The notes: generated by a model not told the origin, from the letters alone. 41,775 nt of DNA from an uncultured Fibrobacteria bacterium (GCA_965652255.1 CBFGVC010000001.1:1-41775), one strand, 5' to 3'. Counted from the first letter of the stretch, positions 29,066 to 40,733 are shown. Translations and numbers: made by a program.

Positions 29066-30877
29066 ATGTCCCTGCGCTTCATCATCCCGTTTCTTTTTCC
29101 GTCGCTTGCCATGGCCTTCGAGAACTACGGCGAATGGCGCTACTCGAAGCAACTGAACATGAACGCGGATGGCTTGTCCCTTTCGGCCCCCATCCACGAT
29201 TTCCCGCTGCTGGTGCGCCTGAACGCGGGAAACTTCGACTTCGGCGCGGCGCGGCCCGATGGTCACGACCTCCGCTTCACGCGAAGCGATGGCTTGACCC
29301 GCCTTCCCCACCAGGTCGAACGCTGGGATGCGGCGGCGCGCGAGGCGGAGGTCTGGGTGCTGGTCGACACCGTGAGGCGGGCAGGGTTGACCTCCCTCCG
29401 CATGTACTTCGGAAATCCGGGCGCGGCCGATGGCTCTGACGGCGTAGCGGTCTTCGACACGGCCCATGGGCACCGCGCCGTGTTCCACCTCGGCGAAGGG
29501 ACGGGCGACACGGCCCGTGACGCCACCCGCAATGGATTCTTCGGGATCCCGCGCGACACGGCCTCGCGCGGGGTTCCATCCGACGCCCCCGGCGTCATCG
29601 GCCGCGCGAAGGAGTTCGCGGGCGGAGGCCCGAACACCACCATCACCGGAGGGTACTATACCCTGCCGGGCAGCGCATCCGGCCCCCTCAACCTTCCCGA
29701 GAACGGGCCCTACACGATCTCCGCCTGGGTGAAGCTTCGTCCCGGGGCGACGACCAACGCGTTTCGCTGCATCGTGTCCAAGTCCGACTTCCAGTACAAC
29801 CTGATGAAGAACAATGTGGCGAACGAATGGCAGTTCAACCCCTTCTCCTCCACCGATGGAACGCCGTCCCGGTGGGAACGCGCCACGGGCGGGCCCGTCA
29901 ACGCGGGCGAGTGGCAATACGTGGTGGGCATTCGCCACGCCGACAATTCCGAATCGCTGTACGTGGACGGGGTTCCCTCGACGGTCATCGTCAACTCGAA
30001 CAGCGGATCTCCCCGCAGCACCGCGTTCGATGTCATGATCGGACGACGCAGCGACTTCGTTGCGGGCACGTCCAACAACGGAAACCGCTTTTGGGATGGA
30101 TGGATCGACGAAGTGCGCATTTCCTCCGGGGCCCGCGGTGCGGACTGGATCCGCTTGAGCTACGAGACCCAAAGGCCGGGCGCGGCGATCGTGAGCTTCG
30201 GGGAGCCGGTCGGCGGAACCCGCCTGACAGGGCCGGAAGGCGCGAGCCGATGGGATTACGTCTATGACTTCGACTCGCGGCTGCACTATAATCGCGGGCT
30301 GACCTTGCACGGGGCCATGAGCGACTCGGCCCGTTTCATCCGGGCGCAGTACGCATCGGATTCCATGGGAATCGAGGCGATCGACCTGTATGGAAACCCT
30401 TCCTACCGTGTCAGCGTGACGCCCGACAGCATCGTTCTCACGGAAATCTACACCAGCTTCCACGAGCCGGAACCCGTGCAGGTAGCGCGGACCGCCTTCA
30501 GCGCCCAAAGGGTCGAGACTCCCAACCTCGCCGCGCCTTCCGCGGACATCGACACGCTGCGGGCGGGCCGTGTCCTCGCGACGCATGTCGTCTCCACCCC
30601 GACCTGGCGGATTCCCGATTATGTGTTCGAGCCCGGGTATGCCCGAAGGTCCCTGGCCGAGATCGAAACCTTCGTGCGCTCCCGTCGGCATCTCCCCGAC
30701 ATCCCCAGTGCAAGGGAAATCGAAACCTCAGGCCTGGACCTCGCCGAAATGAGCTTGCGTCTCCTCAAGAGCGTCGAGGAGCTGACGCTTCATGTGATCG
30801 ACCTCGACAAGAAAAACACGAGGCTCGAGGAGGAAATCGGAAACCTGCGGACGATCGGAAGGGAGGCACGAAAATGA
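29066..30877 (+). CDS. secreted DUF2341-like / LamG (concanavalin-A-like) protein with a tail-fibre-type C-terminal coiled-coil module
   Basis: AGGAGG lies 5 nt before the ATG, followed by a signal peptide. N-domain FPLLVRL...DGHDLRFT..DG..LPHQVERWD...EVWVLV...MYFGN matches the DUF2341 pattern. Centre YTISAWVK...EWQYVVG...LYVDG...IGRR...WDGWIDEVRIS is LamG-like. The C-terminus IPDYVFEPGYARRSLAEIETFVRSRRHLPDIPSAREIE..GLDLAEMSLRLLKSVEELTLHVIDL resembles a module I recall from Bacteroidota tail-fibre-domain proteins. Confidence 0.85.
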   Translation: MSLRFIIPFLFPSLAMAFENYGEWRYSKQLNMNADGLSLSAPIHDFPLLVRLNAGNFDFGAARPDGHDLRFTRSDGLTRLPHQVERWDAAAREAEVWVLVDTVRRAGLTSLRMYFGNPGAADGSDGVAVFDTAHGHRAVFHLGEGTGDTARDATRNGFFGIPRDTASRGVPSDAPGVIGRAKEFAGGGPNTTITGGYYTLPGSASGPLNLPENGPYTISAWVKLRPGATTNAFRCIVSKSDFQYNLMKNNVANEWQFNPFSSTDGTPSRWERATGGPVNAGEWQYVVGIRHADNSESLYVDGVPSTVIVNSNSGSPRSTAFDVMIGRRSDFVAGTSNNGNRFWDGWIDEVRISSGARGADWIRLSYETQRPGAAIVSFGEPVGGTRLTGPEGASRWDYVYDFDSRLHYNRGLTLHGAMSDSARFIRAQYASDSMGIEAIDLYGNPSYRVSVTPDSIVLTEIYTSFHEPEPVQVARTAFSAQRVETPNLAAPSADIDTLRAGRVLATHVVSTPTWRIPDYVFEPGYARRSLAEIETFVRSRRHLPDIPSAREIETSGLDLAEMSLRLLKSVEELTLHVIDLDKKNTRLEEEIGNLRTIGREARK

Positions 30878-31206
30878 GAACGCCACTCTCGCCTTTCGCG
30901 CACCCGTTTCACGCCCTGCTGGCCGCATGCTTCGTCGCGACGGGGCCCGTTTCCGGCCAGCCGCTCCGGCAAGAGCCTTTCCGAAAATCCATGTTGATCG
31001 CGCCGCGCCCCGCCCATGCCGATAGCGCCGGGAGGCGGCCGGAAACCCGCGAAGGTCCCCAGGTCGCACGGAACGGACAGGAACATCTCTTCGCGTTGGC
31101 CAACCGGATCACGGATCCCGCCCAAATCGACACCATGCGCGGCCTCTCGGGAGAGGACAAATCCTTTCTGCGTCGGCGCTACCACATCCTGAACCCCCTG
31201 GATTGA
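30874..31206 (+). CDS. 110-aa predicted secreted protein, unknown function
   Basis: ATGA overlap with the upstream stop. GGGAGG at 30861-30866. Signal-like HALLAACFVATGPVSG. Confidence 0.55.
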   Translation: MRTPLSPFAHPFHALLAACFVATGPVSGQPLRQEPFRKSMLIAPRPAHADSAGRRPETREGPQVARNGQEHLFALANRITDPAQIDTMRGLSGEDKSFLRRRYHILNPLD

Positions 31207-31215
31207 AGGTCCCCC

Positions 31216-40236: not shown

Positions 40237-40250
40237 TCAGGAAGGGGCGT

Positions 40251-40733
40251 GTGGTGAATAAGGACGTTGTTCAGTGTATGATGGGGCTTGTGTTGCTTAT
40301 GTCCATTTCGAGCAACACCTATTCTTTCGAACCGAGAGGAAAAATTGAAGCCAAGGATGGTTTTTTAGGCCCGAGCTTTTATTTGGAAGAAAAGAGGTTG
40401 CACCCCGATACCTTAGATGCGATACTTTCAAGTAATGGCTGTTGCGAAAGTTTTTTGAGGCGGGGTAGAGTGTATTCGACCGTCACTTCTGCGCTGGTTG
40501 CTGTGAGTGGATCCGTGTTTCTGTATGGGGCTGTCATGTCATCCATTGATCGGACGCTTCATCTTACACCCATTACGTTCGGCCTTTCGACTTTTGCAGT
40601 AGAAGTTCTTGCCTTCAATTATTTGGATAAGAGAAATTCGCGGATGGCTGTTGAGGTGTACAATCAGGGACTCGGGGGCGCTGGTTTGCAATCGCGCCCC
40701 GTGTACATGTTGAGCTTTTTTAAAAGCTTCTGA
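40251..40733 (+). CDS. 160-aa membrane protein, candidate cognate immunity protein
   Basis: Starts 14 nt after the RHS stop, with GGAAGGGG upstream of GTG 40251. About 47% GC in a hand-counted 60-mer. Has 2-3 TM helices (VYSTVTSALVAVSGSVFLYGAVM, ITFGLSTFAVEVLAFNYL). Confidence 0.65.
   Translation: MVNKDVVQCMMGLVLLMSISSNTYSFEPRGKIEAKDGFLGPSFYLEEKRLHPDTLDAILSSNGCCESFLRRGRVYSTVTSALVAVSGSVFLYGAVMSSIDRTLHLTPITFGLSTFAVEVLAFNYLDKRNSRMAVEVYNQGLGGAGLQSRPVYMLSFFKSF

Follow-up and report, generated by a model that had tools for sequence, protein, structure and literature searches.

Capsules of the BC type have so far been understood only as payload cartridges of TcA in the Tc (ABC) toxins or, built as a single chain, in the service of a type VI secretion system (T6SS). 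Of the recognized TcC proteins, 96% come from proteobacteria, and their lengths are 851-1050 aa (PMC7861908). The mosquito protein SGS1 runs in the order of shell, nine-bladed propeller that closes it, shell, carbohydrate-binding module (CBM), lectin-like sandwich, shell, and RHS core, with about 230 residues of predicted transmembrane helices buried within the capsule, and its bacterial homologs are said to be much shorter (PMC9935623). In addition, the relevant passages of Zhang et al. (2012) set out a "TcdB/TcaC-like export pathway," composed of a signal peptide, SpvB, and a beta-propeller together with RHS repeats, and list fibrobacteres and bacteroidetes among its carriers (PMC3482391). 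Here, we analyzed a five-gene locus (29066-40733, + strand) in a 41,775-nt stretch of DNA from an uncultured Fibrobacteria bacterium (GCA_965652255.1, CBFGVC010000001.1:1-41775), which is called the window below. We suggest, with a probability of roughly 0.6, that the locus is a Sec-exported, TcA-less, BC-type (SGS1-like) polymorphic toxin cassette for interbacterial competition, in which genes 3 and 4 would form the capsule and fibre-like proteins are possible targeting adaptors. The signal peptides mentioned throughout are predictions, read from the sequence by eye and with a Kyte-Doolittle scan only.

The TcB-like character of gene 3 (31216-35835, +; 1539 aa) became apparent from its predicted structure. 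The AlphaFold2 (AF2) model of residues 1-1190, computed with 50 relatives in the alignment, reached a pLDDT of 84.5 and a pTM of 0.86; it superseded a first model from a 5-sequence alignment, which had a pLDDT of 49 and an uninformative Foldseek list. The top Foldseek match of the later model was mosquito SGS1 (E 3.9e-23, TMq 0.42 over 1227 columns), followed by TcdB1 (5.4e-17), TcdB2-TccC3 (1.5e-15), and YenB (1.1e-14), each with a probability of 1.00, and lower in the list stood the T6SS Rhs protein Tse15, teneurins, and assorted beta-propellers (sortilin, WD40). By its modeled fold, gene 3 is a TcB/SGS1-like half-cocoon over residues 1-1190, that is, an RHS-type half shell with an inserted beta-propeller. 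The N-terminal shell domain (about aa 58-430; 31387-32505, +; profile positions 60-420) starts with an SpvB-like motif, TGQPxYxxPL...ARG..xFP..LxYsG...GW.G.GW.L, and is common to hundreds of large proteins from the Fibrobacteres-Chlorobi-Bacteroidetes (FCB) group; among 1.84 billion representatives, a profile search picked up 584 relatives of gene 3. The central beta-propeller (about aa 437-960; 32524-34095, +) is seen as repeated four-strand blades in the AF2 model. We infer eight to nine blades, with the boundaries and the blade number taken from the strand pattern and not from coordinates, whereas TcB has five to six (PMC9935623).

The C-terminal part of gene 3 probably holds a CBM-like jelly-roll (aa 1349-1481) and a YD repeat (aa 1487-1526), which together lie at 35260-35793 (+). 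The first-pass annotation of the locus had placed both modules there, and both persist as weak matches: the jelly-roll aligned with the CBM of gene 4 in hhalign with an E of 0.0036 and a probability of 9%, and the YD repeat was matched with an E of 0.011, its profile reaching Rhs proteins in the PDB with an E of 5e-4. The C-terminus of the gene 3 family is an invariant ..GEN. Six cysteines (C142, C443, C448, C602, C624, and C904) are also invariant in the family alignment. The cysteines and the GEN end fit an exported, disulfide-bonded protein whose C-terminus is under functional constraint. Genes 3 and 4 were considered as possible paralogs, and this was rejected, as BLASTP and hhalign found similarity between them at the level of YD repeats only.

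Gene 4 (35839-40236, +; 1465 aa) carries a predicted signal peptide with a conserved AT.HA|R, a weak CBM_4_9 match at residues 41-174, and DUF6443 at residues 214-334 in Pfam. Its RHS core (residues 1092-1168; 39112-39342, +) matched TIGR03696 over the full model (1-76) with 62.9 bits against a cut-off of 32.5, and the YD repeats matched TIGR01643 with 27.6 bits against 15.8. The core contains the autoproteolysis-type motifs RWYDPELSMWLTSDP ... IDPNGM, of which DPNGM finishes at residue 1168; RWYDPE..SDP is present. In the PDB, the core was best matched by SGS4 and SGS1, then by TccC3, and also by YenC2 and Rhs cores. On the strength of these core and YD-repeat profiles, gene 4 is classed as a TcC-like RHS toxin. 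The jelly-roll, the core ending in DPNGM, and the 297-aa C-terminus described in the first-pass annotation were all recovered, the jelly-roll as the weak CBM_4_9 match, but its count of at least 13 YD repeats was too high, since strict YDxxG occurs 8 times and the number rises to about 10 when two degenerate matches are included.

The 297 residues that follow the core (residues 1169-1465; 39343-40236, +) form the variable C-terminal toxin domain. Residues 1199-1368 consist of 25% Gly and 18% Ala and hold several hydrophobic segments and many glycine-zipper motifs, and the domain matched no family and nothing in the PDB. We predict that it is a membrane-inserting toxin. Directly downstream, gene 5 (40251-40733, +; 160 aa, GTG start) has an N-terminal hydrophobic segment and hydrophobic stretches at about residues 74-122, which can be read as two membrane segments in a Kyte-Doolittle scan; this agrees with the membrane protein proposed before. 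Gene 5 had no match in Pfam, NCBIfam, or PHROGs and is a putative membrane immunity protein. Within about 250 nt of where the RHS core ends, the GC content drops from about 0.66 to about 0.47, and it is still low across gene 5; such a pattern is the usual mark of an exchanged toxin/immunity cassette.

This interpretation is supported by the gene order in related genomes. A look-up of contigs with the exact sequence of gene 3 gave no record. The gene 3 family is rare in a word-indexed search, which found 7 proteins, and in ten loci from GTDB species it occurs in Fibrobacterota metagenome-assembled genomes (MAGs) of Fibrobacteres, Fibrobacteraceae, Hallerella, and Fibrobacter, except for one bin labeled Alistipes. 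The layout of that locus (L011; CAVKGV010000006.1, labeled Alistipes onderdonkii) is near-identical to the Fibrobacter and Hallerella loci, which reflects either faulty binning or a recent transfer. Wherever a Fibrobacterota locus includes DNA downstream of the gene 3 homolog, an RHS gene of 1350-1670 aa follows the homolog immediately; DUF6443 is present in 11 of the 12 RHS partners, and a small open reading frame (ORF) then follows. The adjacency of a gene 3 homolog and a DUF6443-RHS gene was seen in the window, in L001 (twice), L002, L003, L005, L007, L009, L011, L012, L013, L014, and L021, and in L019, a distant relative with the same order in a MAG of Cyclobacteriaceae (Bacteroidota). The closest relative, L001, has two complete modules in tandem (1-7827 and 8241-19857), with a DUF2341-LamG fibre gene and a gene-2-like gene preceding the second module only. 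The five-gene order is not kept as a unit. The conserved core is composed of gene 2, gene 3, gene 4, and the small downstream, presumed immunity gene; gene 2 belongs to it because it is kept 5' of the gene 3 homologs, and gene 1 is accessory.

The body of the RHS homologs is conserved and their C-terminal domains differ: they include Colicin_D (L005), DUF7305, MAM, and a TNT-related domain, the last in P0198, a 3199-aa Bacteroidota relative. A small ORF stands 3' of the RHS gene in all loci. The C-terminal domain of gene 4 has no homolog in the related loci, and neither gene 5 nor the ORF 3' of it has a counterpart in them. A conserved body, a variable C-terminus, and an adjacent variable putative immunity gene are the features of a polymorphic toxin, and we assign the locus to this class by its sequence.

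Further evidence that genes 3 and 4 belong together comes from natural fusions. In P0066 (2855 aa), the gene-3-like part (14-1511) and the gene-4-like part (1510-2594) are both complete and in frame, and the junction, "...IKES-ATAKHARGYSF..NWSFE", corresponds to the C-terminus of gene 3 joined to the mature N-terminus of gene 4, with the hydrophobic signal segment absent. Two assemblies contain the protein, one of them an NCBI MAG and the other made by Logan from a sequencing run; read-through of a stop codon was considered as an artefact and rejected, as the signal segment is missing at the junction and the protein occurs in both. P0160 is joined at the same motif, P0136, P0170, P0177, P0197, and P0198 also have the gene-3 and gene-4 parts in one chain, and several proteins of 2500-3200 aa combine the N-domain of gene 3 with DUF6443-RHS. 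The L021 locus (MAG GCA_041746255.1) encodes a fused gene 3+4 protein of 2855 aa (8001-16568) and also a divergent split pair on the minus strand (1-6162), in which a 111-aa ORF was called between a 1409-aa gene-3-like gene and the DUF6443-RHS gene. Together with the fold match and the constant adjacency, the in-frame fusions bear out the pairing of a TcB-like with a TcC-like protein that had been proposed from the sequence of the window.

The same data bear on the possibility that gene 3 only accompanies the RHS toxin, as a separate protein of the surface or adhesin type or as a degenerate RHS paralog, and that gene 4 closes its own capsule with DUF6443 as the N-terminal plug. The known structures of T6SS Rhs effectors and teneurins do use N-terminal plugs of their own, the roughly 1130 aa before the C-terminal domain of gene 4 are possibly enough for a complete shell, and DUF6443 has no assigned function. 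However, the fusions link the C-terminus of gene 3 to the N-terminus of mature gene 4, proteins of the gene 3 family finish with YD repeats and an invariant C-terminus, the fold of gene 3 consists of shell sheets and a propeller of the kind that closes the chamber in TcB and SGS1, and the adjacency of the two genes extends across two phyla. We therefore consider a self-closing gene 4 unlikely.

Among the described systems, the BC proteins of the Tc toxins (TcdB2-TccC3, TcdB1-TccC2, YenB-YenC2, and SepB-SepC) share with genes 3 and 4 the adjacency of the genes in the order B then C, a B-like protein with RHS-type sheets and a beta-propeller (Foldseek E of 1e-14 to 5e-17), a C-like protein with YD repeats, an RHS core, DPxG-type motifs, and a variable toxin of about 300 aa, and the occurrence of natural B-C fusions. 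Unlike in these systems, no TcA lies nearby, both proteins have a predicted signal peptide, and gene 3 fails the Pfam definitions of SpvB, midN, and midC. Extra CBM-like domains lie on either side of the gene junction, DUF6443 is found as well, a small ORF occupies the immunity position, and some C-terminal domains are of antibacterial type. The carriers are Fibrobacterota and Bacteroidota, whereas 96% of the recognized TcC genes, as cited above, are proteobacterial (PMC7861908).

If the locus were an ordinary Tc toxin, its TcA would be encoded at another site in the genome, with genes 3 and 4 supplying the B and C components, and the target would be a eukaryote (such as a protist, nematode, or insect). 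The TcB-like fold with a TcC-like partner fits this explanation, "orphan" TcC genes apart from tcA and tcB are known (PMC7861908), and the contig spans only 42 kb. However, of more than 14 loci, none has a TcA-sized or neuraminidase-like gene in the roughly 10 kb around it, and neither the window nor the flanks of the homologous loci hold a TcA-sized or TcA-like gene. B and C carry predicted Sec signals here, in contrast to the release by lysis that depends on the type X secretion system (T10SS) in the relevant part of a report on Yersinia entomophaga (PMC10847048). Further, a small ORF stands in the immunity position 3' of each RHS gene, some C-terminal domains are Colicin_D, a bacterial-type tRNase, and gene 4, at 1465 aa with a CBM and DUF6443, does not resemble the shorter, proteobacterial TcC proteins (PMC7861908). 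An ordinary Tc toxin is thus quite improbable.

The resemblance to SGS1 and SGS4 (PDB 8FJP, 9ON3) supports the reading of genes 3 and 4 as a TcA-less BC-type cassette. SGS1 was the top structural match of the gene 3 model, and in sequence searches it was also the protein that the gene 4 family profile matched best (E 1.7e-26). Genes 3 and 4 are collinear with the plan of SGS1, the gene split falling between the two sandwich domains, and in both SGS1 and gene 4 a hydrophobic C-terminal segment of about 200-300 aa follows the RHS core. At the sequence level, phmmer and profiles gave no match between the gene 3 family and SGS1. The RHS core region of gene 4 alone aligned well with SGS1, and the hydrophobic tail aligned poorly, so homology of the tails is not established. 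SGS1 differs in being a single eukaryotic chain of 3364 aa with an extra N-terminal propeller, a wedge domain, and Tox-SGS, whereas the bacterial system is split into two predicted secreted proteins with a swappable toxin and presumed immunity and accessory genes.

The class described by Zhang et al. (2012) shares a signal peptide, an SpvB-like N-terminus, a propeller, RHS repeats, and a variable toxin with immunity with this locus. As presented in the passages concerned, that class has a recognizable SpvB and a single polypeptide, whereas here there are two genes and the SpvB-like part lies below Pfam detection; gene 2 and the fibre-module genes of the loci studied here are absent from those passages (PMC3482391). 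As a general idea, an SpvB-RHS toxin independent of TcA had therefore been put forward before. The suggestion of an undescribed delivery type had thus been partly anticipated there, although surroundings free of TcA, T6SS, and type IX secretion system (T9SS) genes were borne out: hallmarks of the three were found neither in the window nor within about 10 kb of the homologous loci. Our literature search found nothing on DUF6443 and no description of Fibrobacter or Bacteroidota RHS systems of this type. The additions for which no description was found are the conserved gene 2, a fibre-module family linked to the pair across two phyla, and the connection with SGS1.

T6SS Rhs effectors (RhsP, Tse15, and Tre23) and WapA-type toxins, which serve interbacterial competition, likewise have an RHS shell, a core, which is shared with gene 4, a C-terminal toxin, and a downstream immunity gene. 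They differ in having a self-contained N-terminal plug, in place of which a separate TcB-like partner is found here, and the locus has no PAAR, VgrG, or chaperone and has predicted Sec signal peptides instead. In Pfam and NCBIfam searches, a TcA-sized gene, PAAR, VgrG, Hcp, and a T9SS sorting domain were all missing from the window, as had been stated before; no T9SS C-terminal domain (CTD) model matched genes 1-5, and N-terminal signal-type segments are present, so that the locus belongs neither to the T6SS effectors nor to the T9SS cargo proteins as these are defined. Members of the FCB group often have a T9SS. An RHS protein that is the cargo of an envelope machine encoded elsewhere (T9SS, T6SS, or two-partner secretion), with its neighbors as adaptors, would fit the frequency of T9SS in the group and the fact that the window covers only part of the genome, but it is very improbable, as genes 1, 3, and 4 lack a T9SS CTD, no PAAR, VgrG, Hcp, DUF1795, or TpsA-type domain was found, loading into a T6SS is not compatible with an N-terminal Sec signal, and the C-termini of genes 4 and 3 are, respectively, the toxin and a conserved YD/GEN end.

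According to the interpretation as an exported BC-type cassette, genes 3 and 4 would each be exported to the periplasm via their own predicted signal peptides, where the C-terminus of gene 3 would meet the mature N-terminus of gene 4 and the two would form one closed RHS capsule. To this capsule, gene 3 would contribute an N-terminal part of the shell, the large propeller closing one end, more shell, and the CBM-like domain, and gene 4 would contribute the CBM, DUF6443, the remaining YD shell, and the plug formed by the RHS core. From its motifs, the core is expected to free the 297-aa C-terminal domain by aspartyl autoproteolysis. The glycine-zipper, membrane-inserting toxin would be kept soluble within the capsule, hidden in a way that parallels the burial of the predicted transmembrane helices of SGS1. 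The membrane protein encoded by gene 5 would protect the producer and its kin, and the toxin and immunity genes would make up a swappable, low-GC cassette. Gene 1 would belong to a fibre-like protein family in which the receptor-type heads vary, being DUF2341 and LamG in this case, and the C-terminal module stays constant; most probably, these proteins would be attached to the capsule or the cell surface and would recognize the target. The system would likely serve in competition with other bacteria.

Several observations weigh against this interpretation, most of them concerning gene 3. The families that mark SpvB/TcB proteins (PF03534, PF12256, and PF12255) are all absent from it: searched whole and in four pieces, gene 3 gave no Pfam match to SpvB, TcdB_toxin_midN, or midC even at E<=10 and none in NCBIfam, and TcdB_toxin_midN/midC (PF12256, PF12255) and FG-GAP-type propeller signatures were found neither in gene 3 nor in its 16 homologs. 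Among the listed SepB homologs, 120 of 120 carry PF12256, PF12255, and PF03534, and nearly all carry PF13517. Pfam SpvB was matched by 3 of the 16 gene 3 family members (best E 0.017, below the cut-off) and by 4 of 29 distant relatives (best E 5e-8), in each case over the first 70 or so positions of the model. No TcB was found in the PDB by phmmer and gene 3 family profiles, tblastn of the gene 3 N-terminus against plasmids and hhalign of gene 3 against SepB alone returned nothing or no more than a motif, and local iterated hidden Markov models (HMMs) built from gene 3 did not reach SepB. When a TcB profile was used for comparison (SepB from pADAP, in an 18-member TcB alignment), hhalign gave one match of 58 columns, between gene 3 residues 68-137 and TcB 34-92 (E 0.0054, probability 6.7%). 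Profile-profile comparison thus hints at TcB within the N-terminal SpvB motif of gene 3 and nowhere else. The SpvB/TcB-like N-terminus of the first-pass annotation consequently does not hold by the Pfam definition, and it survives at the level of the motif, with the 6.7% hhalign match, and of the fold, with the Foldseek matches. In the domain annotation of the five proteins, domains were found in genes 1 and 4, and genes 2, 3, and 5 matched nothing in Pfam or NCBIfam.

The remaining points on this side concern the structure and its use. The global TM of the gene 3 model to TcB is about 0.2, which means that the relative arrangement of the domains differs. Closure of the capsule is argued from synteny, fusions, and analogy, with a model that covers residues 1-1190 of gene 3. 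The putative Sec-type signal peptides of genes 1-4 are by-eye judgements, and the toxin domain belongs to no recognized family, so pore formation is a guess from composition. There is no evident route across the outer membrane and no evident device for translocation into a target cell. Finally, gene 1 has no counterpart in most Fibrobacterota loci, which makes it an accessory that is not essential to the core.

Gene 1 (29066-30877, +; 603 aa) matched DUF2341 at residues 65-131 (E 4e-14) and Laminin_G_3 at residues 208-362 (E 1e-19) in Pfam. The DUF2341-LamG part is a common, promiscuous module that is fused to many other domains. The last 90-110 or so residues, delimited by an alignment of homologs, form a conserved helical module with a short coiled coil (30536-30877, +) and the consensus W.I.PDYVFE..Y...SL.E.E.F....HLP.IPSA.E....G.DLAEM...LLK.VEELTLH; they match no PHROG, Pfam, or NCBIfam family. 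With its signal peptide, DUF2341, LamG, and this conserved module, gene 1 is predicted to be a secreted fibre- or adaptor-like protein. A homolog holds the equivalent position in L001, and module-bearing genes lie directly 5' of gene 3 homologs in L001 (one gene), L003 (three tandem genes), and the Bacteroidota locus L019. In the L003 and L019 proteins, the N-terminal and central regions gave PHROG matches to phage tail fibres (E 1e-10 to 5e-16). When the module was used as the sole bait, it was found in 2 viral contigs, out of 2.9 million, compared with at least 566 metagenome stretches. A phage tail-fibre domain at the C-terminus of gene 1 was rejected on these numbers and on the lack of a PHROG match. 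The module itself is a cellular, unnamed domain, although other parts of its carrier proteins resemble tail fibres. The DUF2341 and LamG domains and a helical C-terminal module had been correctly recognized from the sequence of the window, and it is the tail-fibre identity of the module that has to be given up.

The module also ties gene 1 to genes 3 and 4. It retrieved 81 loci, of which 39 measure at least 10 kb; in 18 of the 81, a gene-3-like gene, an RHS gene, or both lie downstream on the same strand, and in all 12 loci that first showed RHS alone, the intervening ORF of 926-1863 aa matches the HMM of the gene 3 N-domain. These loci indicate that the order of fibre-module gene or genes, gene-3-like gene, and RHS gene is general. 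A link between the fibre-like gene and the gene 3/4 pair, which had been proposed from the window, is thereby upheld as genetic linkage through the C-terminal module in many loci. The module genes often occur in tandem arrays of up to 12 (L028). Arrays of 8-12 genes were seen in the metagenome loci L028 (342-11309), L034 (945-10312), and L069 (6961-14542), with genes of about 200-350 aa in stop-to-stop frames; downstream of each array stand a gene-3-like ORF and an RHS gene. Such arrays look like a battery of exchangeable heads on a constant tail.

Gene 2 (30874-31206, +; 110 aa) has a homolog directly 5' of the gene 3 homolog in 10 further Fibrobacterota loci, with two copies in L021. The family has a signal-like N-terminus and shares the C-terminal motif ..E[DE][KR]..[LCM][KR].R[YFL].[IL][LV][NH]P.., which in the window reads ...GEDKSFLRRRYHILNPLD; no match was found in Pfam, NCBIfam, or PHROGs. 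The window copy contains LAAC, but the Cys is not conserved in the homologs, and the protein was therefore rejected as a lipoprotein. Gene 2 appears to be a small, predicted secreted, conserved accessory, perhaps with a role in assembly or anchoring.

A bolder interpretation, which we offer tentatively and regard as doubtful, is that the locus represents a self-sufficient, TcA-free delivery system of the FCB group, whose exchangeable fibres dock by their constant module and which is the full-length bacterial counterpart of SGS1, possibly the type from which SGS1 evolved; the bacterial relatives of SGS1 had until now been taken for short RHS fragments only. In such a system, the fibres would dock on the propeller or the shell of the two-piece capsule and direct it to target cells, after which a toxin, membrane-inserting or enzymatic, would be set free from it. 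The locus also raises the question of how a putative closed capsule of about 330 kDa exits a diderm cell and passes its cargo to a target, for which gene 2 and the fibre-module family, with its arrays of up to 12 variable genes, are candidates. SGS1 itself aids pathogen transmission by a mechanism that is as unclear as its origin, and it is the closest solved relative of both halves of the bacterial pair; a bacterial system with the domain order of SGS1 and a hydrophobic C-terminus next to a presumed immunity gene suggests that SGS1 may also be read as a toxin cartridge. The analysis also gives a context to DUF6443, to a family of "hypothetical" proteins of about 1500 aa, and to a C-terminal module, as yet unnamed, that hundreds of metagenome proteins carry, and it may matter for the competition of Fibrobacter and Hallerella in gut and rumen communities.

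The layout of the locus agrees with the earlier description in strand, coordinates, and junctions: the five ORFs are joined, from gene 1 to gene 5, by an ATGA overlap and by gaps of 9, 3, and 14 nt. They are preceded by a leader of 404 nt (28662-29065, +), which separates gene 1 from a thioredoxin-like gene (28152-28661) and contains a palindromic, terminator-like hairpin at 28778-28793. The leader holds no convincing sigma-70 promoter, and the scan for promoters and terminators there gave background levels. The rest of the window is chromosomal housekeeping DNA, with genes for glycogen phosphorylase, alternative complex III, cytochrome c oxidase, a MiaB-like enzyme, and a SPOR protein. CoxI and peroxiredoxin cluster at 90% identity with proteins that bear the name "Fibrobacteria bacterium," which places the source among the uncultured Fibrobacterota, with aerobic respiration genes. 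A co-directional respiratory cluster at 9199-23676 (+) encodes a UbiA-type prenyltransferase, a multiheme cytochrome, subunits of alternative complex III (ActD and an NrfD-like protein), SCO1, and subunits I-III of cytochrome c oxidase, which implies an aerobic lifestyle. Cultured Fibrobacter species are known as anaerobes. At 23906-24508 (+), a 200-aa ORF has a weak match to the PARP catalytic domain (E 6e-4, below the cut-off). Just 3' of gene 5, an ORF at 40836-41654 (+) has a signal peptide and, at 41105-41654, alternating strands rich in Gly and aromatic residues that end in ...EMLFRF; it has no Pfam match and looks like a small outer-membrane beta-barrel protein.

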